Positions 12,787 to 56,355 of a stretch of 64,000 bases of DNA are shown in pieces (position 1 is the stretch's first letter; the number at the start of each line of letters is the position of its first letter). The translations under genes and the position numbers were made by a program. The stretch lies in NCBI RefSeq assembly GCF_030013595.1, contig NZ_CP122769.1; one strand, written 5' to 3'. This DNA comes from Escherichia coli. Lineage in GTDB: Bacteria > Pseudomonadota > Gammaproteobacteria > Enterobacterales > Enterobacteriaceae. The notes beneath the pieces were generated by a model. That model was not told where the DNA came from. It saw only the letters and a program-made list of their open reading frames with translations, and did no database searches.

Positions 12787-13692
12787 ATGCAATGGATTTC
12801 CACAGCCAGCCAGAAAATCGATGAGCGTCTCTATCGTGTCTGCGTCTGGGTAAAAAAATATCACGCTGATGCGATTAACCGCGTTGTGCTTACCGTTGAT
12901 CTAAGTAAAGCCCGACATGACCCTGACGAGGACCAGGTAAGAGCAGAGCTGCTGTGCGGCCATTATTTTTTGCTTCGTAAGGAAAACGCTTCGAACTCTG
13001 CGCCTGACGATCAAAAGTTTGCTTTCCTGCCTGACGGGCGCAATCTGTGTTGGCAGACCGCAACCCCGGTGCTTCAGCATCTCCTGCTCAATAAAAACGT
13101 TCCTGAGTCGCTGAGGTTGCTTACGGACTACATACATATGCGTCTGGCCAGGCTGACAATGGTACCAATGTCCGGAACCATCATGAACGAGGCTCTGCTG
13201 GACAGCATCAGCTGGGTTAAGGTGGATTTGACCTACTTCTGGCAGTATGAACAGCTCAGCTCTCATCTGGGACCCATCCAGATAACCCACAAGGCACTAG
13301 TACGCTTCGGGCATCTGGCAAAGAATGATGAAAACTCCAGTGCCATAAGAATCCTGCGTCAGCGTCTGTCTTCAGAATTCTTACAAGAATTTCAGATGGC
13401 TGAGGATGAGCTAAAGCGCAAACAGTCGTTGATGGGCACCATGGACGTGAAAATGCTGTTTCATGCTCATTACCCCAGCCAGAAGATGCTGGTGGCTCGA
13501 TATAAAAATGGTTGGGTAATGGTGGATTGTTTTCTGTTTCATCATACCAAACCTAAGAAAAAAGCAAAAAACAAAACTACTGTGGCTAAGCCTCAACTTA
13601 AAGAGACTAAAAGAGAAGGGAGTGAAAATGGAACTGGGCATTATGGTGTGCATCGTGTTGTTACTCTCCGTGGCGGCGGCGTGGATCAGTAA
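12787..13692 (+). CDS. hypothetical protein
   Basis: 301-aa ORF with Lys-rich C-terminus. Confidence 0.5.
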   Translation: MQWISTASQKIDERLYRVCVWVKKYHADAINRVVLTVDLSKARHDPDEDQVRAELLCGHYFLLRKENASNSAPDDQKFAFLPDGRNLCWQTATPVLQHLLLNKNVPESLRLLTDYIHMRLARLTMVPMSGTIMNEALLDSISWVKVDLTYFWQYEQLSSHLGPIQITHKALVRFGHLAKNDENSSAIRILRQRLSSEFLQEFQMAEDELKRKQSLMGTMDVKMLFHAHYPSQKMLVARYKNGWVMVDCFLFHHTKPKKKAKNKTTVAKPQLKETKREGSENGTGHYGVHRVVTLRGGGVDQ

Positions 13693-39876: not shown

Positions 39877-39975
39877 ACAGCCTAAAAGTTGTACGCCCTA
39901 TTTAACAGCTTTTAGGCTGTTAATTTGATATTACAGCTTTTAGGGTGTATGTTTAGGAAACAGCCTGCAAGGTGT
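39877..39975 (+). promoter_or_regulatory. hipBA promoter with four phased operator-like inverted repeats ACAGC-N6-GYTGT
   Basis: Sites at 39877-39892, 39905-39920, 39933-39948, 39960-39975 (27-28 bp spacing). Confidence 0.55.
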
Positions 39976-40002
39976 ATCAGAGGAAACTACTGAGGCCAGC
40001 TT

Positions 40003-40299
40003 ATGATCAATAATGATTACCCGTTAAACACGCTCAACCAGCTGCGTCCCTTGCTCATTGGTTTTCGCAAGGCGAATGGCCTGACGCAAAAAGACCTGTC
40101 CGAAAGGTTAGGCGTCACTCAACAGACATACTCACGTCTGGAAGCCAACCCTGCCAGTGCGAGCATTGAACGGCTATTCAAGGTGTTTTCCATCCTGGGC
40201 GTAAAAATCAGCTTCTCCTCGGCAACCACCTCTTCAGAGAGGAAGCAGACGGAAGAAATGCTTAAATCAAACTCACCTGCACGACAGGAGGATTGGTAA
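40003..40299 (+). CDS. hipB: HipB-like HTH (XRE family) antitoxin
   Basis: HTH GLTQKDLSERLGVTQQTYSRLE; directly upstream of hipA. Confidence 0.85.
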   Translation: MINNDYPLNTLNQLRPLLIGFRKANGLTQKDLSERLGVTQQTYSRLEANPASASIERLFKVFSILGVKISFSSATTSSERKQTEEMLKSNSPARQEDW

Positions 40300-40303
40300 C
40301 GAT

Positions 40304-41629
40304 ATGAGCCGGAAACAGCAACGTCTGGTAATTTGGATGAACGGCATCAAAGTCGGGTACTGGGAAAAAAGCAAAGGGGTAGACAGCTTAGAATACCTTC
40401 CTGAATGGGTTGCTGACGAACAGGGAAGGCCGCTGTCATTGTCCCTTCCTTTTACTCCCGGGAACCAGGTCTGGCGTGGAAATGTGGTACGTGACTATTT
40501 TGATAATTTACTGCCGGACAGCGAAGGCATACGCAGACGTCTGGCAATGCGTTACAAGGCCGATAGCCTGGAGCCTTTTGATCTGCTGACGGAGCTGGGA
40601 AAAGACTGCGTGGGCGCGATACAGCTGCTTCATGACGGAGATGAACCCACTGATTTATATTCCGTGAAGTATCACCCGCTTACTGAATCAGAAATTGCGG
40701 CAACTTTGCGTAATACCACGGAGACATTGCTACCGGGCAGGCCAGAAGATAACGACGACTTACGTTTATCTATTGCCGGTGCTCAGGAGAAAACAGCCCT
40801 ACTGTGGCATGAAGATCGGTGGTGTATGCCGGAGGGTAATACACCAACGACGCATATATTCAAGCTACCGCTCGGACTTGTGGGGAACATGAAAGCCGAC
40901 ATGAGCTCGTCGGTTGAAAATGAATGGCTCTGCTCGGTACTTCTCGGCCAGTACGGGCTCCCCGTGGCAAGAACGCAGATTGCTCACTTTGAAGATCAGA
41001 AAGCGCTGGTGGTAGAACGTTTTGACCGAAAATGGTCAGGAGACGGACAATGGATCATTCGTTTACCCCAGGAGGATATGTGTCAGGCCCTGGGCGTTTC
41101 GCCATTACGAAAATATCAGGCGGACGGCGGGCCAGGTATATCGGAAATTATGGAGGTTCTGAGTAATTCAGACCGTGCTGAGCGTGACAAAGCGCAGTTT
41201 TTTATGACGCAGATAATTTTCTGGATGATGGCCGCAACAGATGGCCACGCTAAAAATTTCAGTATTTCTATTGGGCCACAGGGACGTTATCACCTTACAC
41301 CAAACTATGATGTGTTGTCGGCATGGCCGGTGATCGGTCATGGGAACAATCAGATATCCTGGCAGAAGTGCAAACTGGCGATGGCCGTACGTGGCAGTAG
41401 CAACTATTACCAGATATATCGAATACAACGACGCCACTGGATCAGGCATGGTGAGATAACCGGCCTGAGTAAACAGCAGACAGAGGCGATGATAGAGGAA
41501 ATCATCGCCAGAACCCCGGGTGTCATTGAACGTGTTAGCGGGCTTCTTCCGGACCAGTTCCCCCAGCAGCTTGCGGAAAGTATTTTTGATGGAATGAGGC
41601 AGCAATGCAGGCGCCTGGCTGAGAAATGA
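40304..41629 (+). CDS. hipA: HipA-family Ser/Thr kinase toxin
   Basis: 441 aa; motifs SIAGAQEK and DGHAKNFSI. Confidence 0.9.
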   Translation: MSRKQQRLVIWMNGIKVGYWEKSKGVDSLEYLPEWVADEQGRPLSLSLPFTPGNQVWRGNVVRDYFDNLLPDSEGIRRRLAMRYKADSLEPFDLLTELGKDCVGAIQLLHDGDEPTDLYSVKYHPLTESEIAATLRNTTETLLPGRPEDNDDLRLSIAGAQEKTALLWHEDRWCMPEGNTPTTHIFKLPLGLVGNMKADMSSSVENEWLCSVLLGQYGLPVARTQIAHFEDQKALVVERFDRKWSGDGQWIIRLPQEDMCQALGVSPLRKYQADGGPGISEIMEVLSNSDRAERDKAQFFMTQIIFWMMAATDGHAKNFSISIGPQGRYHLTPNYDVLSAWPVIGHGNNQISWQKCKLAMAVRGSSNYYQIYRIQRRHWIRHGEITGLSKQQTEAMIEEIIARTPGVIERVSGLLPDQFPQQLAESIFDGMRQQCRRLAEK

Positions 41630-41689: not shown

Positions 41690-41896
41690 ATGACTGAAGA
41701 ACAAAAAAGAATAGAGCGGGCTATTGAGTTGGCTTGTCGTTACGGCGGAACCGATGAAATGCATCATCTGCAATGGGTCGTGGATCAGATGGTAAGAGAA
41801 CTTGCTGGAGAACGTTATGCACAGATTGTAGCTGATGCCACCAGCGGAGAAGATGGGCCTGATACTTACAAATGGAGTGTTGGGATCGCGCCTTAA
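41690..41896 (+). CDS. small hypothetical protein
   Basis: 68-aa ORF. Confidence 0.3.
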   Translation: MTEEQKRIERAIELACRYGGTDEMHHLQWVVDQMVRELAGERYAQIVADATSGEDGPDTYKWSVGIAP

Positions 41897-41997: not shown

Positions 41998-42408
41998 ATG
42001 GCTATTTTAGCAATCATTGCAGTTATCGCCCTGGGTGGGTACGCCTACGGATTTATTAAAACCCGTGAGCTGAGCGCTTTGCGTAAAGAAATGAAACTAT
42101 ACGTGGATCGCATGGAAGCGGCGGAGCTGGACTTACACGCAATCAGAAGTGTAGCGGAGCACCGGTTGCACGGTGCAGGTAAACAGTTTGCCGACCTTTA
42201 CAGCCGTATCGACGGTGCAACTGTGACGCTGACACCCGAAGATCAGCTGTTACTGGCAACGATGCCATTTAATATTCAGGATGTAGAAGACATCGTAAAC
42301 GAGCGCGGTCCAAAGACAATTAGCGGCCGTCCATTCTGGGAAGTTGAGCCAGGCCTGCATGATTATGAATATGGCCCGCAATATCCGTATTTCCCAGACC
42401 AGCGCTAG
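41998..42408 (+). CDS. hypothetical membrane-anchored protein
   Basis: N-terminal TM helix MAILAIIAVIALGGYAYGFI. Confidence 0.45.
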   Translation: MAILAIIAVIALGGYAYGFIKTRELSALRKEMKLYVDRMEAAELDLHAIRSVAEHRLHGAGKQFADLYSRIDGATVTLTPEDQLLLATMPFNIQDVEDIVNERGPKTISGRPFWEVEPGLHDYEYGPQYPYFPDQR

Positions 42409-42420
42409 GAAGAGATCAAG

Positions 42421-43236
42421 ATGAGAGAGCCAAGACCACGCCATACCTTGCAGGTCATTCGTGTACCTTCTCTGGAGGTTCAGGACCTGGGGCTGACCAG
42501 CTTTGATAGCTGGCTTGACGAGCACGGGTATGACAAAACGAATGCCAGAAATAACCGTACCATCTGGGCGAGAGAAGGCGGATGGCATCTGAAACGTTGC
42601 AGAAATCTTGAAACTGGCACGGACGATTTCTGGTTTATCGCTTTCGATGGTAAAGGCGGGAAGATTTACCCGCTGAAAACCCAAAGAGACTACCGGGCTG
42701 CATATCGTAAGCTGGAAGCAGAAGGTTATGCGCCTGCGGTCATCGAGCAAATGACCACAGGCGCAGCATATAACCTGGCCTATCCACGTTCCACCCTAAA
42801 ACAAGCTGAGACGGCCACCAGCGAGCCAATTCGGAAACCTGACGTAGATATCCAGGGTGAGCACTGCGAGCGCGTAGTGACGCAACGTAGTGGCGTGGCA
42901 CAGGGTAAATTCAAAGCTCTGCTCATCGAGAATTTCGCAGGCCGTTGTGCGGTAACCGGTTGGGTTAATGGAGGTGTCCTGGATGCGGCACACATTGAAC
43001 ATGGAACCCGGTACAATCCGTCTAATGGCATCCTGATGACTCCAACAATGCATGCGCTGTTTGATGCCGATCTTATGGGCATAGATCCGGCCACCCTGAC
43101 CGTTCATTTTAAGCCAGGCATTGAGGTGGGCGAGCTGTTTGAAGGCCGTAAAATCACACCGCTGGTGTACGATCTGGACTTAGAGCGGCTGGCCGTACGC
43201 TGGGCAGAATACCAGGGCCTTGCTCAGGACCAATGA
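42421..43236 (+). CDS. HNH endonuclease-domain protein
   Basis: C-terminal motif FAGRCAVTG..LDAAHI..NGILMTPTMHALFD (HNH_2-type). Confidence 0.7.
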   Translation: MREPRPRHTLQVIRVPSLEVQDLGLTSFDSWLDEHGYDKTNARNNRTIWAREGGWHLKRCRNLETGTDDFWFIAFDGKGGKIYPLKTQRDYRAAYRKLEAEGYAPAVIEQMTTGAAYNLAYPRSTLKQAETATSEPIRKPDVDIQGEHCERVVTQRSGVAQGKFKALLIENFAGRCAVTGWVNGGVLDAAHIEHGTRYNPSNGILMTPTMHALFDADLMGIDPATLTVHFKPGIEVGELFEGRKITPLVYDLDLERLAVRWAEYQGLAQDQ

Positions 43237-46378: not shown

Positions 46379-47221
46379 ATGGCTAGGGGTAGGCGTCTCA
46401 AATCCTATTTGGATTATGAAAATGCGCTAGGTGACGGCATAGGAGTGGGCTATGGCCAAAGTTATCAGCCCTGGCTTAGAGCTCAGGACGTTAAATCCCG
46501 TGGAAACCGTTCGATAGTCTTTGGCCTTAAGACGTTTCGAAACCATCATCTCCTTTCTTCTGTCGAAAGTAACTTTTTCTATCTGGCTGAGTTTAATGAC
46601 TCGGTGATTGATATCCGGGAACAATTCCCACTCTTTCCTCTCCGGCTTACCCAACAAATAGCAAATCATCTACATTTTCAACATCCTATGGTGAGGGGAG
46701 TAAGAGGAGTACCTGTCGAAGTTCTGAATGTTATGACAACCGATTTTTTACTGACCTTGAGAACTCCTGAAGGCGGACTTCGATACAAAGCTATAGCAGT
46801 AAAACATAACGAGAGCATACCTGAACGCGAAGCCCAAAAACTTGAAATAGAGAGGATGTTTTGGCAGTTGATTGATGTTGAGTTTCAAATTTATGTTGGC
46901 TCGGAACTCAATAACGTCGTCGGTAAAAACATTTGCTGGGCTACTTCTGTATTAAGAGATGGTTCTGAATTTTATGATAAATATCCTCTTGATAAAATCC
47001 TATGGAAGCTTAAACCAGATGTTTATCCCATAGTAGGACTACGTGCAATGATTTCATCAATCTTTGGGGTAGATGCACAAGAAGCGATGATGTTATTGCA
47101 GGCAATGATTGGATTAAAAATGATAAATGTTGATTTATCATATCCAATACTCGAAACCGGTCTGATAAAGATAATTTCCAATGACCACTATATAGGACTG
47201 AACGCAAATGGATATTATTAG
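46379..47221 (+). CDS. tnsA: Tn7-like transposase subunit TnsA
   Basis: 280 aa, position and size; overlaps tnsB start. Confidence 0.75.
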   Translation: MARGRRLKSYLDYENALGDGIGVGYGQSYQPWLRAQDVKSRGNRSIVFGLKTFRNHHLLSSVESNFFYLAEFNDSVIDIREQFPLFPLRLTQQIANHLHFQHPMVRGVRGVPVEVLNVMTTDFLLTLRTPEGGLRYKAIAVKHNESIPEREAQKLEIERMFWQLIDVEFQIYVGSELNNVVGKNICWATSVLRDGSEFYDKYPLDKILWKLKPDVYPIVGLRAMISSIFGVDAQEAMMLLQAMIGLKMINVDLSYPILETGLIKIISNDHYIGLNANGYY

Positions 47222-49331
47222 GAATTCAGTCTGGCTCTCTCAAGGCACTGATTTGCTTGCAGAGGGACTTTACCGTGTTTTGGATTTTGACAGAAAGGTC
47301 GATTTGTTAATTTTGTTTAAAATAAAATCAGAAAGAACGGGTAAGCCAATCCCTTTCTCATTTTCAATGTTTAAATATTATATTGAATCAAATAGCATAA
47401 CTTGTAAAGATTATATATATCCTTCATATATGTTAGTAGATGAGAAAGAATTAACAGATAAAGACAGAGGAAGGCGAGATGAAAATTACAATATCATTAA
47501 AGATCTTGTAGATGACAGAATGTTTCTGTTCGACTATGCATTACATAAAAAGTCGCACCTTTTAATGGATTACTCAAGAAATAAAAAAATATCACAATAT
47601 ACTATCAGAACGCTTCTGGCGTTGTATTGGCGACATGGGCAGGATATTTATGCATTGCTACCCGCATTCTCGAACTGTGGCGCCGCTGGGAAAAGTAGAA
47701 TCAAACATGAAATTAAACTTGGGAATTCCAAAAAAAACAGAGCATTACCTAATGAACGATCACGTGTTTTCATTCTTAATGAAAGAGATATAAATAATAT
47801 TAGAAAATCTCTCATTACGTATCATTATAAAGTTAACGGAGATACGATAAAGAAAACATTAGAGAGACATATTGATTTGTATTTTAGGGATGAAATTAAA
47901 ACAGCAAACCTAGAAAATAGAGCTCCATATGTTCCTTCTTTAAAACAATTTTCATACTGGAATAAAAAACTCTTCACTAAAGATTTCTCGATAAATAAGA
48001 AGAACACGAAAAAAGAAATAGACCTCAAAATGCGGGCGCTTTTAGGTAGTGTGGCTAATACAACTGTTTTGCCGGGTGATGTTTTCGAAATAGACTCAAC
48101 TGTCGCTGATGTACATCTTATTTCGAGTTTAAACAGACGAAAAGTCATTGGGCGTCCTACTATTTATACAGTGGTGGATCGTGCAACAAGAATGATTGTT
48201 GGCCTTCATGTTTCTTTATACCATGCTTCATGGCGAGCCGCCCGACAAGCGTTAGCAAATTGCTTTATGCCAAAAAAAGAATATTGTAGATTATTTGGAA
48301 TCTCTATTACTGATGATGATTGGCCTTGTTCTCACATTCCATTAACATTGATGTGTGACAACGGGGAGATGATTGGTCTTAAACCTCAGGAAGAGATGAC
48401 CCCCCTGACAAAACTTGAGTTTGCGCCAGTCGGTAGAGGCGACAGAAAAAGCATTGTTGAACGCTGTTTCGGCATTCTGAATGATGAGGTTATTCATAGG
48501 CTTATTGGAACAACACGAAGGGGAAAGATTGTTAAAGGAGAGCCAACACCGCAATCCAGGGCTTGTTTAACGATTCAGGAGGTCACGTCTTTACTGATTC
48601 GGGAGATACTTGCACATAATCAGAGAACGTATGAGGAACTGGCTTATATCAATCCCTTACTGATTGAAAATGATCTCGTAATATCACCAAAAAATAGTTG
48701 GATGATAAGCTTAAAGCACGGGAGATTCAGCGCAAGAGCCGTTGGGGCCGACGAAGTGATCGCACGATTGTTAATCCCTGTGAACGCTAACATTACCGCC
48801 GGTGGGATTCAGTACAATAATCTTTTTTATGAATGTGATCCTGAAATTGCATCAGGTGTCAGAGTATTTGGAAGAACCACTTGTGAAGCAAGAATAGATG
48901 ACAATTGCGTAGATTATATATATGTAAGATTTGACAAAAATAGCATTTTCAAAAAACATTACCTACTTAAGAAAAGAGATGTATTTAAAGGGAAAGCTCA
49001 TCTTGATACAGATGTAATGGCTGATTGGGTAGATACTCAAAAAGAAATTAATTTATTTACTCTGGATTCGCTCAGCAATATCAATAATAAAGATGAATTT
49101 AACAGGAAAGGTAACGAAAGATTAAATGAAATATACGAATCTCGCCGGGTACATGGTAAAGATATTAAAAAGAACAGAAAAAATGAACTTGATTCATTAG
49201 GGCGAACTCATGTTGCTAATGGAAGATCTGAACCCCTACTTCCTTCATCCAGTAATGTTCTGCTTTTGCCTGGCCGGGAGGAGAAACAAAGATGGTTAAA
49301 AGGTAAGAAGAAGACTGAGGACGCAGAATAA
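47208..49331 (+). CDS. tnsB: Tn7-like DDE transposase TnsB
   Basis: 707 aa; DDE core region (EIDSTVADV..VVDRATRMIVG..MCDNGEM). Confidence 0.85.
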   Translation: MDIIRNSVWLSQGTDLLAEGLYRVLDFDRKVDLLILFKIKSERTGKPIPFSFSMFKYYIESNSITCKDYIYPSYMLVDEKELTDKDRGRRDENYNIIKDLVDDRMFLFDYALHKKSHLLMDYSRNKKISQYTIRTLLALYWRHGQDIYALLPAFSNCGAAGKSRIKHEIKLGNSKKNRALPNERSRVFILNERDINNIRKSLITYHYKVNGDTIKKTLERHIDLYFRDEIKTANLENRAPYVPSLKQFSYWNKKLFTKDFSINKKNTKKEIDLKMRALLGSVANTTVLPGDVFEIDSTVADVHLISSLNRRKVIGRPTIYTVVDRATRMIVGLHVSLYHASWRAARQALANCFMPKKEYCRLFGISITDDDWPCSHIPLTLMCDNGEMIGLKPQEEMTPLTKLEFAPVGRGDRKSIVERCFGILNDEVIHRLIGTTRRGKIVKGEPTPQSRACLTIQEVTSLLIREILAHNQRTYEELAYINPLLIENDLVISPKNSWMISLKHGRFSARAVGADEVIARLLIPVNANITAGGIQYNNLFYECDPEIASGVRVFGRTTCEARIDDNCVDYIYVRFDKNSIFKKHYLLKKRDVFKGKAHLDTDVMADWVDTQKEINLFTLDSLSNINNKDEFNRKGNERLNEIYESRRVHGKDIKKNRKNELDSLGRTHVANGRSEPLLPSSSNVLLLPGREEKQRWLKGKKKTEDAE

Positions 49332-50779
49332 TGAATCTTATACGGCGCGTTTCAGCGATATATAAAGAACAGGAGTTACCTGAGTATCGTGGCAATCCCT
49401 TAATTGAAGCACTTCCTGAAGCGCTTACGGAAGATGAAGTACTTCTGGAAATGAGTTATTTCCCCGAAATTGACGAAAAAATCCGCTGGACTGCCCCGGC
49501 GAATGTTAGAGAGCAGTATGTCGAACGTATAAAGAAATTCCGTTGCCCTCAAACCAATCTTATCCAGGCTTATAAGATGATCTTACGGGCACTTAGGGAA
49601 AGCTATGCAGCTCGTAATCCTTTAAAAAGCGGAACAATTCAATATCTTCATTACTATGGAAATGAGCGTCCTGATATTGAGCCAGAAAGTGGATATTTTA
49701 AATCCCAGGCTGAAACTATTACGATAGTTGGAATGAGTGGTTCTGGAAAAACTACCATGATTGAGCAAGTCATGGAACATTTCCCTCAGATTATAGAACA
49801 CAGCAGCTATAAAGGAGTTTTTCCCGGCTTCAGTAAGCAAATTGTATGGGTAAAGATTAATTGTCCATACAATTCAAGTGTGAGAGACCTTTGTGAAGAG
49901 ATTTTACAAAAATTAGATGATGCAATTGGTATTGAACGAACTACACCTGAGATTAGAAATGGTGCTCTGGCTCGCCAGATTGCACAAAGAATTAAATCAT
50001 CATTTTTGGGTATCCTTGTTATTGATGAAATGCAGAGGCTTAAATTTTCAAGAACCGGGGGTGAGAGTAAGTTGATTGATTTTTTACATGAAATTGTAGA
50101 TTCCATGGGGGTATCTATGGTTTTTTGTGGAAATCATCCTTTTGACGAGACGCTGACAAAGAAAATGAGAATTGCCAGGCGGGCAGAGTCTGGTGGTTAC
50201 ATGAAAATTAAGAATGTTAGATACGATTCACAAGACTGGCAATCGTTTATTCATTATTTATGGCCATTACAATGGACAAATGTTGAAACTCCATTAAATG
50301 ATGAGTTAAACGAAAAATTATTCATTTTATCTAAAGGCAATATTGGATTGGCTCAGATGATTTATCGGGGGGCACAATTAAAGGTTATCGGTAGCGGCAA
50401 TGAAATCATCACTGGCGCAGTCTTGTCGGCCTCTGTACCGGTACTCGTGAGTCATACGGAGGAATATAAGGATACTCCACTCCCGGGGGCCGCGACTGAA
50501 GATGAGGAAGCTAAATGGCTCTCTGCATCTAATGAGGGTGATGCTTCGGCTAAAATCATGGCAGAGAAGTCCCTAAAGTCTTTGATCCCTGGGGATATAG
50601 ACAGGCCACAGCACAAGGAATTCGTAGGAAAAATAGACGAGGTTTTGCGCAATTTCGACGAGAAAATACTGTCTCTTGACCACGATCTTGTTATCAACAG
50701 AACAGCTGAAAAGAAAAATACCTACGATGCTCTTCAGCGTTGCGGGCTTATAAATATAGATCCACTTAATAAATTGTAA
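49331..50779 (+). CDS. tnsC: Tn7-like AAA+ ATPase TnsC
   Basis: Walker A GMSGSGKTT, Walker B VIDEMQ. Confidence 0.85.
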   Translation: MNLIRRVSAIYKEQELPEYRGNPLIEALPEALTEDEVLLEMSYFPEIDEKIRWTAPANVREQYVERIKKFRCPQTNLIQAYKMILRALRESYAARNPLKSGTIQYLHYYGNERPDIEPESGYFKSQAETITIVGMSGSGKTTMIEQVMEHFPQIIEHSSYKGVFPGFSKQIVWVKINCPYNSSVRDLCEEILQKLDDAIGIERTTPEIRNGALARQIAQRIKSSFLGILVIDEMQRLKFSRTGGESKLIDFLHEIVDSMGVSMVFCGNHPFDETLTKKMRIARRAESGGYMKIKNVRYDSQDWQSFIHYLWPLQWTNVETPLNDELNEKLFILSKGNIGLAQMIYRGAQLKVIGSGNEIITGAVLSASVPVLVSHTEEYKDTPLPGAATEDEEAKWLSASNEGDASAKIMAEKSLKSLIPGDIDRPQHKEFVGKIDEVLRNFDEKILSLDHDLVINRTAEKKNTYDALQRCGLINIDPLNKL

Positions 50780-50819
50780 TGAGGTAACAGTTCGTAACGG
50801 TCAAAGAGAGGTGTGGGAA

Positions 50820-52376
50820 ATGAGAATGTTGCCTGTTTTGCCTGATGAATCCTTGTTCAGCCGGTTTTGTCGGACAACTACCGTGTACGGTATGTCCCCA
50901 TCTTCTCTGTTAACGATCATTTTCAACAAACCTGATATGAACGTCCATCCAATTCTCAATTCAGGATTAAAGGCTATTTCTCTTCATACATCCGAAAGTG
51001 CAGATCAGCTCTGGCATGAACAGACTTTACTCCCTCTTTTTGCCTGGGCACTACCAATCAGTCGTAATGAAATTATGGATTTCAACACGACCCCTGCCAG
51101 GCTTAATCGATTGTGCCGCCTTAGTAATTTTTCACTAGGGCAGCGCACACTATTGAAGTTTTGCCCGGTTTGCGCTCGTGAAGATACTTTTCATTATGGT
51201 GTTACTTATTGGCATCTGGCGCATCAGCTTCATGGGGTTACAACCTGCCATCGGCATCCGGTAGCGCTTGAAAGCATCCATGTCCCTTCTTCACCGCACA
51301 TACGTATTGGACTGATGCCTCCTGTTTCGTATACAGAACAACTTAGCAATGAGATAGACTTCGATTTTGCTAAGTTTTGTTATGAGTCCCTAAATATAAT
51401 CAGAAGAAAAGATATTACACACCCCAATTACATGGATGTACTTAAAAAGTTGAATTTATTATCATTGGATGGAAATTTAAAGAAAAATGTATTCTACGCA
51501 CATGTTTATGCTAAGTGCCAGTTATTTGGGGAGGGTTCATCGGGACTTATACCAACATCCCTAACTGATTATCATTACTGGGAGCCTATACTCAAAGACA
51601 AATGTTGTCAGCATCCCACAAAGCATCTTTTGCTTTGTTATTGTTTGTTAAATACTTGCTGGCCAACGTATGCAGGAAGTCGTACTAATAAAAAGAAAGA
51701 AATCTTTAAAAGTCATAAGAAATACAGTTTTCATATAGTTGAAAATAATACTAGTGTTAGCAACCTTGGGAAGGAATTTAGTCGCAGCAGATGTTACATT
51801 AAAACACTTATTTATAAAAAATACCTGAGGGCGTTTAAGCGAAACACAAAAATTAATATATTCACTGAATTGCTTATCAAGTCTATGGCTGTAAGGGGGT
51901 TTAGTCTGGCATCCATAGCTGAGAAAAACTCATTATCGGAAGGAGCTGTATCCTCTGTAATTTCATCTTGTTACGGTTTATGCTCATGGCGTAAAAAATG
52001 TAAAAAAGATTCTTTAAGACGGCGTCATAAGCAGAAAATATTAAGATTTATACATAATCAATCCGTTTCTATAACACGAAAGTTAGTCAAAGAAAGTTGT
52101 TATGCAAGTTTCTATTGGCTAAATAAACATGAATGTGACTGGCTTAATTCCTGTCTTCCTAAAACAATACGATGCTATAAAAATAAAAGAGTAGACTGGA
52201 GCGAGAGAGATATTATCTCATCATCATTAATAAATGATGTTTTATCTCAGGGGCAGTACTCGATGTCACTTACAAGTCTAGATGCTTTACTGGGAGGGCA
52301 TGGCTGGCTTTTGAAATACAGAGATAAACTACCAATGACAATGATACTTCTCAGAAAAATGGAACTAATTAAATAA
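50820..52376 (+). CDS. tnsD: TnsD/TniQ-family target-selection protein
   Basis: N-terminal LPDESLFSRF and zinc finger CPVC..H..CHRH; ATG 50820 with gagagg RBS. Confidence 0.7.
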   Translation: MRMLPVLPDESLFSRFCRTTTVYGMSPSSLLTIIFNKPDMNVHPILNSGLKAISLHTSESADQLWHEQTLLPLFAWALPISRNEIMDFNTTPARLNRLCRLSNFSLGQRTLLKFCPVCAREDTFHYGVTYWHLAHQLHGVTTCHRHPVALESIHVPSSPHIRIGLMPPVSYTEQLSNEIDFDFAKFCYESLNIIRRKDITHPNYMDVLKKLNLLSLDGNLKKNVFYAHVYAKCQLFGEGSSGLIPTSLTDYHYWEPILKDKCCQHPTKHLLLCYCLLNTCWPTYAGSRTNKKKEIFKSHKKYSFHIVENNTSVSNLGKEFSRSRCYIKTLIYKKYLRAFKRNTKINIFTELLIKSMAVRGFSLASIAEKNSLSEGAVSSVISSCYGLCSWRKKCKKDSLRRRHKQKILRFIHNQSVSITRKLVKESCYASFYWLNKHECDWLNSCLPKTIRCYKNKRVDWSERDIISSSLINDVLSQGQYSMSLTSLDALLGGHGWLLKYRDKLPMTMILLRKMELIK

Positions 52377-52387
52377 GAGGGAGTTAT

Positions 52388-53314
52388 ATGGTTTACGAAA
52401 ATGAATTGTGGCACAGTTTTCTTCTGCGTTCACAGATAATGTATAACTTATCCAATTGCAGGAACATAATATCAAAGCATGGCGCACTAAGGTACGATGC
52501 CTTTCCTCGTTTCGAACTGATTGATATGTACAAATTGCATAGCTTGCAGGATATATATGACATTCTTGCCACTAGAAATGGTTATATACTAACTTCCAAT
52601 ATAGTGTCGTTATCTTCTGGTGTTTACGGGTATTTTAACGCTGTTGAAGATGCCTGTCGGAAAAATTTTCACATAACTAATTCATATCCATTGGTAAACA
52701 TCTCAAACATTCGTTACTGTCACAAATGTATTGTTGAAGATATACACTCTAAAGGCATTGGTTATCTGCGTCATAGATGGTTGTTTGAATCTAAATGTGC
52801 AGTTCATAGTACCAGTTTATATGAGGTTTGTTTTGATAACTATTTGAATGCAGTGAAAGGACTTAGTGACTTAATTATAAGTGGAATAAATCCTCATGGT
52901 TATTGTTCCCTTGTGGTTGACGTTTCAAACCCTTTCAAAAATCCAGTGTATATATTACCATGTGCACGTAATAAAATTTTAAAATGGATTTCGGACAATA
53001 AAAATATGCTGATTTACTTTCTCTTTGATCTCTTCAAATGTAAGTCGCATTCAAGTTTATCTAAGGTTATCGAAGTCAAGATAATGCATGATAGATATAT
53101 TTCTGCGGTGTTCAAGATGTTAAGTGAAGTTAATTTTTGTAATTTCAACTCATTTATTTCTGATATTTTTGAGGACGTAAGTTATGCCTCTATCGGACTT
53201 GATGATTATTCTGTTAATGTGCATTTTCTCAGGCTAAGGGCTGCAGATTGTAAATTTTGCCAGTTGAATGGTAAATATTTTTGCTCACTTTACAATGTAA
53301 AATTTCTTCGCTAA
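52388..53314 (+). CDS. second TniQ-like protein (short)
   Basis: N-terminal ENELWHSFLLRS and C-x2-C-x22-C-x2-H motif (CHKC...CAVH). Confidence 0.5.
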   Translation: MVYENELWHSFLLRSQIMYNLSNCRNIISKHGALRYDAFPRFELIDMYKLHSLQDIYDILATRNGYILTSNIVSLSSGVYGYFNAVEDACRKNFHITNSYPLVNISNIRYCHKCIVEDIHSKGIGYLRHRWLFESKCAVHSTSLYEVCFDNYLNAVKGLSDLIISGINPHGYCSLVVDVSNPFKNPVYILPCARNKILKWISDNKNMLIYFLFDLFKCKSHSSLSKVIEVKIMHDRYISAVFKMLSEVNFCNFNSFISDIFEDVSYASIGLDDYSVNVHFLRLRAADCKFCQLNGKYFCSLYNVKFLR

Positions 53315-53586
53315 TTTCACTTCATTTATAAAATACTAAGAAAGCTAGTTAGATAAGGTTTTATATTTTGACTGGGGCAGGAATAAATTATCACTCATAG
53401 AGTTTCCCTGGGGGTTACCACCTGTGTATGATGCCGGTTAGCAACAACGTCTAAAAGACCTGCGATCACGTGGGTCCCTCTCCAGCAAAGGGGCAAGGGG
53501 TGCTATATAACGGTGTACTGCTTACCCAATACGGCCTTGTATTTGAAAGATGCCGCATCTTGGCAGGATTCGTATTACAGCCTATA

Positions 53587-53629
53587 GTCTGTTAATGAGC
53601 ATTACAGCCTATATGCTGTAAATCCCTGC
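53587..53629 (+). promoter_or_regulatory. operator-like inverted repeats upstream of hipB paralogue
   Basis: ACAGC-N6-TCTGT at 53587-53602 and ACAGC-N6-GCTGT at 53614-53629, same type as hipBA operators. Confidence 0.45.
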
Positions 53630-53666: not shown

Positions 53667-53966
53667 ATGAACACTCAATACGCTTTGAAGACTTTGAATC
53701 AGTTACGTCCTGTTTTAATCGGCTTTCGCAAAGCCAATGGACTGACGCAAAAAGATGTTTCTGAACGTTTGGGTATAACACAGCAAACTTATGCCCGACT
53801 AGAGGCCAACCCTGCAAGTGCGGGTTTTGAGCGTTTGTTTAGGGTGTTCAGCGTCCTTGGAGTGGAGATCGTACTTTCATCCAGGGAACCATTGTCAGAT
53901 GCAAAGCCCGAATACGGAGCTATGCACAATTATTCTTCACTTCCAGCCAGGCGGGAGAAATGGTGA
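53667..53966 (+). CDS. HipB-like HTH regulator (orphan paralogue, no adjacent hipA)
   Basis: MNTQYALKTLNQLRPVLIGFRKANGLTQKDVSERLGITQQTYARLE closely parallels hipB at 40003. Confidence 0.75.
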   Translation: MNTQYALKTLNQLRPVLIGFRKANGLTQKDVSERLGITQQTYARLEANPASAGFERLFRVFSVLGVEIVLSSREPLSDAKPEYGAMHNYSSLPARREKW

Positions 53967-54529
53967 CGCCTGGCGCTTCCCGGTCTAATTTTTCTTCAAC
54001 AAGATTAACCCCTTAGCGGCCTGAAGTATCAGGTTGCGATAGAGCCTTTCATTTCTTCTGTTATGTTAAATACACCATTTTGAGCTATTTCGCTCGGCCT
54101 TAAATTATCTCTTCATTCTTCAGTGAAAATTTTATGTCGATCACATTATCGATGAATTTAGGAAATAATCCGTAAATGAAAATCTATCTTCTTTTAAATT
54201 CATCAGTGTCAGTAGCAAATATTACGCATAAAAGAATGGTTATTATTATCATTTAAATTATAAAGCTCATGAGTCAATTCCAAAAAATATAATAAGCATT
54301 GAAATCATTACCCGTGATTCTGGAGTTTTAACTTTGCCATGTAACCAACCACAAGTTAGTTTCCGGTGTTTTGAGGGGCAGTAAAGTTCTGAAAGCGCGA
54401 CCAGATCATAATCCCGAAATGTCGTTAAGATATTCTGAATAACGGTTATCCCTGCTTGTTGGCAGGCATTTGAAAATATATTTTGTATTCAGGTTGCAGC
54501 AAAACGCTTTCTTACACACAGGACTTCAT

Positions 54530-56355
54530 ATGCGGCTCAGAAAATTAAAACTGAAAAACTTCAGAGGCTACAGAAACTCTACTGAAATCATTATTGATGA
54601 AAGCATGACGGGTATTGTCGGTCGTAATGACTTTGGGAAATCAACGCTTCTGGAAGCGCTGGCTATTTTTTTTGAAACAGAAGGAATGAAGGCTGACAAG
54701 AATGACATGAACTGTTTCAGCCTAAGAGAAGGGGACGGCCGTTTTGAAATAGCCTGTGAATTTGATGACCTGCCCGATTTTATCATGATCGACGACAGGG
54801 TGCAGACCACGCTCGCCTCAGAACATCTGCTGAATGAGGACGGCAATTTTGAAATCGTCAAAACGTTTAAAGCAACGACCTCAGGAAAACCGGAGCAGAC
54901 CTGCATCCGCTGCATCCACCCGGATGAGGAGCCCCTGAGAAATTTACTGGGCATGAAAATTTCTGAGCTCAAGGCGGTGGGAAAAGAAGTTGAAAAAAAT
55001 GTGGCGGATAAACGCACTGCATCGTTATGGCGTCAGGCCATCAGGGAAGCCGCAGCCCCCTATACCTGTTCGGAAATTATGCTGGATGTCGATAAAGAGT
55101 TCGGAACCGACACAAAATCATTATGGGGTAAGATCCTCGATTTGCTGCCCACGTATGCGATTTTCAAAGCCGACAGGGAAAGCAGCGACGGGGATTCCGA
55201 AGCTAAAAACCCCTTACAGCAGGCCGTAAAAGACGCTCAGGCTGCGCTGCAGGACAAAATTACAGCGCTGGAAAATGAGATTCAGGACAGCGTCCTGGAT
55301 GTCGCACAGAGAACGCTGGATAAATTACGTGAAATGGCCCCCGAACTCGCCAGTGAACTGACTCCACGATTTAAGGAGAAACCCAAGTGGACCTTCAATT
55401 TCACCCTGGACGGGGAAAATGGCATCCCCATCAATAAGCGCGGCAGCGGGATAAGGAGGCTTATCCTGTTGAATTTTTTCGGGCTGAGGCTGAAAAGAAT
55501 GTCGCGGGGACGCCCAGAAATGTGATTTATGCCATAGAGGAGCCTGAAACGTCACAGCATCCGAACTATCAGATGATGCTGATGAAAGCGTTACTGGCAC
55601 TGGCAGGCCAGCCGCACCGTCAGATTATCGTCACCACCCATGTCCCGGCGCTGGCCGGATTAATCCCTGTCGAAGGCGTACGTTATGTTACCCGAAATGA
55701 GGCGGGTGAACCCGTAGTAAAAATGCCGGATGACGCAGTGCTGAAGGAAGCCACTGAAAGCCTGGGGGTGCTGCCAGAGACCGGTATGGAAAGGGCGCAG
55801 GGGATTGTTCTGGTAGAGGGAAAGTCGGATGTTACTTTCCTGAGGCATGCGGCCAGTTCATTAAAACAGTCAGGTGCGCTGCCAGCCTCTCTGGAGGACG
55901 TGAAAATAGTGCCAGTCCTCATAGGAGGGTGTGGTAGCGTCAAACACTGGGTTACATTGAATCTGGCCAAAGATCTGGGGCTTCCCTGGTGCGTATTTCT
56001 GGACTCCGATATTGGGGGAGACCCTGCACAGGTTCTGTCCATCCAGAAGCGTAAAAAAGAAGTAGAGGAGGCCGGTAAGGTATTTTTCGCTACGCGCAAA
56101 CGTGAGATAGAAAACTATCTGTGCCCGGATCTTATCGAGGAAATTACTGGTGTAGCCGTCACGTTTACGGACACCTGTGACGCTAAAAAAATAATCGGCC
56201 GGGCTGTGGGAATGAAACCCGATAATGTACTAGATAAATTCTGGCCTCAGATGACATCAGAAAGAATCATCTCAAGATCAACCTATCATGACGGAACGCA
56301 GGAGAGAAGCGAGCTGGTTGAGATCCTGAGCGACATTGTATCCATGACGAGATAA
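54530..56355 (+). pseudogene. OLD-family ATP-dependent nuclease (AAA ATPase + Toprim), apparent frameshift
   Basis: Walker A GRNDFGKST; downstream frame has IEEPETSQHP and Toprim VLVEGKSDV / VFLDSD; frames switch at the T6C run 55474-55480. Confidence 0.65.

Follow-up and report, generated by a model that had tools for sequence, protein, structure and literature searches.

The stretch of DNA analysed here (hereafter the window), 64,000 nucleotides of an Escherichia coli contig (NZ_CP122769.1, RefSeq assembly GCF_030013595.1), contains a hipBA module, that is, a gene for a HipB-type antitoxin and repressor followed by a gene for a toxin of the HipA kinase family, and several short inverted repeats lie directly upstream of hipB. 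The question that this locus raises is what these repeats do: whether they are operators through which HipB controls its own operon, targets of some other protein, RNA structures, or structural remnants. The arrangement of the repeats, their relation to the promoter and their conservation in relatives, all read from sequence, lead us to conclude that the four sites are very probably HipB operators that would serve the autoregulation of hipBA.

Direct reading of the sequence and a pattern search located four ACAGC-N6-GNTGT palindromes on the plus strand at 39877-39975 (Table 1). The first-pass annotation had described four repeats of the type ACAGC-N6-G(C/G)TGT, centred 27-28 bp apart immediately upstream of hipB. 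The four sites are present, but the right half of site 1 reads GTTGT, so that the pattern has to be widened to G(C/G/T)TGT; the spacing held as described, with centre-to-centre distances of 28, 28 and 27 bp and 27 nt between the end of site 4 and the hipB ATG (40003), which places the centres at -118.5, -90.5, -62.5 and -35.5 relative to this codon. The motif ACAGC-N6-GNTGT gave 8 strand-matches in the window against 0.33 expected, and none of 100 shuffles reached 8. With a 10-position score, 9 sites reached at least 9/10 where 1.95 were expected, six of them upstream of the two hipB genes found in the window (the second is an orphan copy without hipA), and four pairs of sites 27-28 bp apart were seen against 0.02 expected. 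The remaining sites scoring at least 9/10, at 12940, 32755 and 55287, are singletons consistent with the chance expectation of 1.95, and they were discarded. An everted pairing of the half-sites (GCTGT-N12-ACAGC, an orientation resembling the GTGTA..TACAC of Shewanella) was also rejected: it would set half-site centres 17 bp apart, which is wrong for a Cro-like dimer, and it is contradicted both by the palindromic N6 within each site (yTATAr) and by the orphan loci, which hold exactly two complete palindromes.

Table 1 Positions in the window of the operator-like sites, the predicted expression signals and the genes of the hipBA and orphan hipB loci
Feature	Position	Strand	Sequence	Remarks
Operator-like site 1	39877-39892	+	ACAGCCTAAAAGTTGT	centre 39884.5; 9/10 against ACAGC-N6-GCTGT; most distal; missing in some relatives
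Operator-like site 2	39905-39920	+	ACAGCTTTTAGGCTGT	centre 39912.5; perfect palindrome; ends 4 nt 5' of the predicted -35
Operator-like site 3	39933-39948	+	ACAGCTTTTAGGGTGT	centre 39940.5; fills 16 of the 17 nt of the -35/-10 spacer
Operator-like site 4	39960-39975	+	ACAGCCTGCAAGGTGT	centre 39967.5; begins 7 nt past the -10; spans about +1 to +16 of the predicted transcript
Predicted -35 hexamer	39925-39930	+	TTGATA	consensus scan; TTGcat/TTGat kept at the same position in relatives
Predicted -10 hexamer	39948-39953	+	TATGTT	consensus scan; first base is the last T of site 3
Shine-Dalgarno-like motif	39992-39995	+	GAGG	read from sequence; 7 nt 5' of the hipB ATG
hipB	40003-40299	+		98 aa; Cro/C1-type helix-turn-helix antitoxin/repressor; helix TQQTYSRLE; C-terminal Trp
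hipA	40304-41629	+		441 aa; Ser/Thr kinase toxin family; Couple_hipA and HipA_C
Orphan-locus site	53577-53592		ACAGCCTATAGTCTGT	5' of orphan hipB; centre 27 bp from that of the next site
Orphan-locus site	53604-53619		ACAGCCTATATGCTGT	5' of orphan hipB; centre 27 bp from that of the preceding site
Orphan hipB paralog	53667-53966	+		99 aa; 64-66% identical to the hipBA HipB; helix TQQTYARLE; tail ...PARREKW

The sites are interleaved with a sigma-70-like promoter predicted by consensus scan, whose hexamers are separated by a spacer of 17 nt, the -35 lying between sites 2 and 3 and site 4 at about +1. We followed these elements in 22 distinct relatives anchored on site 3. The -35 appears as TTGcat/TTGat, two nucleotides ahead of site 3 (T in 95%, T in 73% and G in 73%), the -10 as TAttgT, a TAnnnT pattern whose first base is the T that closes site 3 (T in 100%, A in 95% and the final T in 100%), and the spacer measures 17 nt in all 22. 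With regard to translation, the ATG at 40003 looks like a better hipB start than the one in RefSeq, because GAGG sits 7 nt upstream of it; the RefSeq protein has 97 aa and starts on an ATC one codon past this ATG (40006-40299; L001 6307-6600). The hipB stop (40299) and the hipA ATG (40304) are 4 nt apart, with hipA directly downstream, and a GGAGG is located within the 3' end of hipB.

Both proteins bear out the identification of the two genes as a hipBA module, from which the first-pass annotation had started. HipA matched the Pfam domains PF13657 (Couple_hipA, N-terminal, E = 4e-21) and PF07804 (HipA_C, E = 4e-51), in both cases beyond the curated cut-offs, and a phmmer search against PDB sequences retrieved E. 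coli HipA (2wiu_A, 3dnt_A) with E = 1e-100 over residues 7-431, the global identity to this protein being 41%. In the alignment, residues S156, K187, D313 and D336 correspond to S150, K181, D309 and D332 of E. coli HipA, all of them conserved together with the motifs GAQEK and DGHAKN; we take these residues, S150 being the autophosphorylated serine, and both motifs to be the catalytic and autophosphorylation elements of the E. coli kinase. The positions aligned to its G22, P86, D88 and D291, which reportedly line the HipA-HipA interface (Schumacher et al. 2015) and include hipA7 changes, are conserved as well. The activity of this HipA as a kinase, as a cause of growth arrest and as a toxin neutralised by HipB is putative. 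HipB carries a Pfam HTH_3 domain (E = 4.5e-15) and its best sequence match in PDB is E. coli HipB (E = 1.4e-6), with which it shares 25% identity. An AlphaFold (AF2) model built on 30 relatives had an overall predicted local distance difference test score (pLDDT) of 77, with values of 88-95 in the four-helix helix-turn-helix core and below 50 in residues 77-92 of the tail. The top Foldseek matches of this model were the E. coli HipB chains 5k98_B and 3dnv_B, with a target-normalised template-modelling (TM) score of 0.85 and a root-mean-square deviation of 1.6 Å, and the next matches were other HipB chains; 5k98_B and 3dnv_B belong to HipA-HipB-operator complexes. The terminal Trp of HipB is invariant across the subfamily and is also present in E. 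coli HipB. In the latter protein, the C-terminal tail is known as the HipA-binding and degradation tail (PMC3376134).

If the repeats are operators, they should evolve as such, and the evidence for this comes from relatives. We aligned four HipB relatives and then scanned one genome per species, which yielded 38 true relatives (L005-L042) from the Enterobacterales (Klebsiella, Pantoea, Serratia, Citrobacter, Brenneria, Erwinia, Rahnella, Hafnia, Cedecea, Morganella and Mangrovibacter) and the Burkholderiales (Paraburkholderia, Burkholderia, Trinickia, Duganella and Caballeronia). Most of them have a full hipA directly 3' of hipB, with HipA identities of 67-81% in Enterobacterales and 55-61% in Burkholderiales. 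Phased palindromes accompany hipB across the 38 loci, and in some 35 diverged relatives of both orders the motif is repeated three to four times ahead of the gene. When the 150-220 nt preceding each hipB were searched with ACAGC-N6-GCTGT, accepting scores from 8/10 upwards, four sites were found in 14 of the 21 intact Enterobacterales hipBA loci, three in 6 and five in the remaining one. Their spacings were 27 bp in 38 cases and 28 bp in 19, with a single other value and, measured from the hipB ATG, their centres cluster around -117, -90, -62.5 and -35.5. Sites scoring at least 9/10 are concentrated in the 150 nt upstream of hipB (81 in 4.2 kb from 28 loci) versus only one in the remaining 115 kb of these loci. 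The 10-12 bp of DNA between sites have diverged among relatives, with the exception of the promoter hexamers; within the sites, the N6 positions that did not enter the score are under conservation too and form a palindrome (T 94%, A 86% in the site logo), so that the full consensus, (T/A)ACAGC-yTATAr-GCTGT(A/T), is palindromic through its centre. The operator-like behaviour attributed to the repeats by the first-pass annotation is therefore well supported, since their sequence, number, spacing and distance to the ATG are kept across genera while the spacers diverge, and since the promoter is interleaved with them.

The Burkholderiales loci add a natural variation to this pattern. They keep the 27-bp phasing, with the core reduced to ACAG-N8-CTGT, and their operators have no preference at C5/G12. 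The recognition helix of HipB, TQQTY(A/S)RLE without variation in Enterobacterales, reads TQQTYAQLE in Burkholderiales. The coincidence of this R-to-Q change with the loss of C5/G12 suggests that Arg45 of HipB may read the C5/G12 base pair. In the Burkholderiales proteins (L033-L042), an Ala-, Lys- and Pro-rich C-terminal linker is also extended by ~70-80 aa, and most of these proteins still end in ...RE(D/N)W.

The relatives also informed us about the mobility of the module. When two IncHI2 lineages (IncHI2A = L086) are compared with a contig of Klebsiella indica (L005), three unrelated contexts in all, homology sets in abruptly ~20 nt 5' of site 1, at ~39856. This position marks the left edge of the transferable hipBA unit, and the operator array therefore belongs to the mobile unit. 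In three loci, hipB and a full operator array stand beside remnants of hipA (L005 2302-2406, L006 2354-2419 and L008 2334-2423) that correspond to the first 35 aa or to the last 22-30 aa of the protein. In these loci the toxin has been lost, with repressor and operators retained.

The window itself holds a second hipB, which has no hipA after it; a tblastn search for a hipA remnant at this place gave nothing significant. The two sites upstream of this orphan gene overlap a predicted promoter (TTGGCA-17-TATAGT), and other relatives without hipA likewise hold two sites 27-28 bp apart. A crude tree suggests that orphan hipB genes arose several times. Within a Tn7-like element, the orphan copy occupies the first cargo position; the transposition module of this element, at 46379-53314, encodes a TnsA-like protein, a TniB/TnsC-like (AAA_22) ATPase, a TnsD/TniQ protein, a second and weak TniQ-like open reading frame (ORF), and an ORF of TnsB size (707 aa) with no Pfam match. 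By its sequence, this is an element mostly chromosomal in E. coli that the plasmid carries, because 431 bp at the orphan hipB occur at 652 chromosomal places in this species against 47 plasmid places; in one chromosomal example the 431 bp lie beside yhiN, with sil genes further on. Since recognition helix and motif are shared by the two loci, it is plausible that each HipB could recognise the operators of the other, the orphan protein those of the plasmid hipBA and the plasmid HipB those of the orphan. Such cross-talk is the one less predictable aspect of this locus. The orphan protein, which has the same C-terminal Trp tail, could perhaps also neutralise the plasmid HipA.

This paralog gives some substance to a first rival explanation, namely that the palindromes upstream of hipBA bind another regulator, either a plasmid or host factor or the Tn7-borne orphan HipB, and that the adjacent HipB binds elsewhere or nowhere. 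The orphan protein has a near-identical helix and its gene is likewise preceded by the motif, so that at least two proteins of this cell could recognise the sites. Nevertheless, the sites travel with hipB in more than 30 species of two orders, both chromosomally and on plasmids, hipB (followed by hipA or not) being their only constant neighbour, most of these loci have no orphan paralog nearby, and the motif changes jointly with the HipB helix between Enterobacterales and Burkholderiales. We therefore consider it very unlikely that a different protein is the one served by these sites.

We are equally sceptical about a function at the RNA level, in which the repeats would act as hairpins and site 2, with a T-rich run, as a terminator or attenuator insulating hipBA from upstream transcription. 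A terminator scan does flag 39902-39923 with its T-rich tail, the site 2 hairpin is stable (-9.9 kcal/mol, z = -3.8), and the 136-nt region as a whole folds better than shuffled sequences (z = -3.6). However, such folds are a by-product of any palindromic operator, and sites 1, 3 and 4 form weak hairpins that do not surpass shuffled sequences (-4.1 to -4.7 kcal/mol, z from 0 to -1.5). What relatives conserve are the bases, without compensatory changes, and a G in site 3 that breaks the pairing is kept at 86%. Moreover, the region matches no Rfam family and, if the predicted promoter is right, sites 1-3 would not be transcribed from it. The least credible explanation is that the repeats are structural remnants (mobile-element ends, iteron-like repeats or a tandem duplication) with no role in hipBA control. 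In its favour are the 27-28 bp period, the direct-repeat families detected and the mosaic character of the plasmid, with its many mobile elements. However, conservation is confined to the palindromes of 16-18 bp and, apart from the promoter hexamers, the 10-12 bp between them are free to diverge, unlike in a recent tandem duplication; even distant genomes keep the sites at a set distance from the hipB ATG, and the motif is essentially absent elsewhere in the loci of relatives.

With HipB operators as the favoured reading, we infer a mechanism that comprises HipB binding, repression, HipA cooperativity, the kinase target and a role in plasmid stability. HipB dimers would bind the four palindromes, in which the half-sites are 11 bp, or one helical turn, apart. 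Since sites 2-4 flank the -35, fill the spacer and cover the start, their occupancy (before the -35, in the spacer and over the start) would exclude RNA polymerase, and the operon would repress itself. HipA bound to HipB may act as co-repressor, by analogy with E. coli. In this species HipA-HipA bridging is reflected in the titles of PDB entries, and HipA molecules on neighbouring operators probably touch here too, because the spacing between neighbours equals that of O1-O2 in E. coli and the presumed interface residues of HipA are conserved. This contact would make binding cooperative, keep the kinase inactive on DNA and build a nucleoprotein complex of ~100 bp. Degradation of HipB would then open the promoter, and HipA, set free in this way or by loss of the plasmid, would phosphorylate its target, presumably a tRNA synthetase such as GltX, leading to growth arrest. 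For the plasmid, the module may thereby provide post-segregational killing or stabilisation. We give HipA-bridged cooperativity between neighbouring operators roughly even chances. A more elaborate version, in which the uniform assembly of four HipA-bridged HipB dimers is also wired in trans, with the Tn7-borne orphan HipB co-repressing the plasmid hipBA, seems doubtful to us; if true, it would establish an anti-addiction or cross-regulation link between a Tn7-like transposon and IncHI2 plasmids.

Several observations weigh against the favoured reading or parts of it. The -35 and -10 are consensus matches (9/12) and the +1 derived from them is a prediction only. Roughly one relative in three lacks site 1, which means that four sites are not obligatory. 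In the searchable literature, we found no report of binding, footprinting or transcription starts for this module or its subfamily. Finally, the HipB of Shewanella oneidensis binds adjacent operators without cooperativity (PMC4150777), so that cooperativity cannot be assumed from the architecture alone.

The replicon that hosts the module is a large IncHI2-type resistance plasmid. The 2-kb hipBA module is 100% identical to that of pAPEC-O1-R, where tellurite-resistance genes lie upstream of it, and it reaches 99% identity or more in 268 E. coli records; plasmids of some 200-290 kb account for 286 of the 290 matching places. It was also found in 1359 PLSDB plasmid records (Escherichia, Salmonella, Enterobacter, Klebsiella and others), and a second lineage, 97.9% identical, occurs on IncHI2A plasmids. 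IncHI2 plasmids rank among the main vehicles of mcr, carbapenemase and metal-resistance genes, and hipBA is one of their presumed maintenance modules. Knowledge of its operators and promoter offers a handle for reporter, stability and de-repression work. The records of IncHI2/IncHI2A resistance plasmids with this same module (e.g., pAPEC-O1-R and pC45-VIM4) only name the genes, 'HipBA' is named on such plasmids, as annotation only, in plasmid surveys (PMC6657070), and in the searchable literature we found no description of the operators, promoter or regulation of this module.

Other genes of the window were noted in passing. Two small conserved hypothetical ORFs with no Pfam match (41690-41896 and 41998-42408) precede a 271-aa ORF with an HNH_2 endonuclease domain (42421-43236), located ~800 nt 3' of hipA. 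Further on, an OLD-family ATPase/nuclease (AAA_15 and OLD-like TOPRIM domains, 54470-56355) is split into two ORFs that overlap (54470-55525 and 55522-56355), and its AAA_15 domain runs on to finish in the second of them; this looks like a frameshift or a pseudogene of a defence-type gene.

The motif described here would define which DNA an entire HipB subfamily of Enterobacterales and Burkholderiales recognises, and the matched changes, R to Q in the helix and loss of C5/G12 in the operator, amount to a natural test of that specificity. In addition, the uniform 27-28 bp array lends itself to asking whether higher-order repression through HipA, as proposed for E. coli, is a general phenomenon. 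How the module compares with the hipBA systems already known is best seen with that of E. coli K-12 (b1508/b1507), with which it shares the gene order hipB-hipA, a Cro-like helix-turn-helix HipB ending in Trp, and a HipA kinase (440 aa in E. coli) with the same catalytic residues. The E. coli operators have the sequence TATCC-N8-GGATA and occur in four copies, O1-O4 (PMC3920265; PMC4150777), with gaps of 10, 21 and 10 bp (PMC4150777); from the sequence, we read centres 28, 39 and 28 bp apart. The two systems are thus alike in their four upstream palindromes, in the 28-bp spacing between neighbours, equal to that of O1-O2 and O3-O4, and in the position of the -10 between the third and fourth operators (TATAAT between O3 and O4 in E. 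coli). This agrees with the multi-site, phased architecture that the first-pass annotation had likened to that of E. coli, here with four promoter-overlapping sites. The same annotation had also stated that the operator sequence differs, and in fact the sites are ACAGC-N6-GCTGT, whereas TATCC-N8-GGATA has no match in the window even with one mismatch allowed. Further differences are that the conserved blocks are 1 bp nearer the dyad, that the middle spacing is 28 bp instead of 39, which makes the array uniformly phased, that hipB and hipA are separated by 4 nt whereas they overlap in E. coli, and that the module is plasmid-borne. The HipB recognition helix also differs (TQQTYSRLE here, KQATISNFE in E. 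coli), which is consistent with a changed DNA specificity.

The layout of the sites finds another counterpart in the hipBA of Shewanella oneidensis MR-1 (SO0705/SO0706; PDB 4pu3-4pu8), whose operators are four copies of GTGTA-N6-TACAC with 34-bp gaps (PMC4150777). Both arrays consist of four equally spaced 5-N6-5 palindromes with the same half-site distance. They differ in the half-site sequence (there is no GTGTA-N6-TACAC in the window), in the gaps, which are of 11-12 bp here, and in the location of the fourth Shewanella operator within hipB; the Shewanella HipA is also much less similar to the one studied here (E = 3e-21) than that of E. coli (1e-100). The general picture of how hipBA operates is left unchanged by this module, and an operator of this kind was to be expected from the biology of the family: compared with both known systems, it is an ordinary HipBA family member that has an operator sequence of its own, arranged in a regular array.

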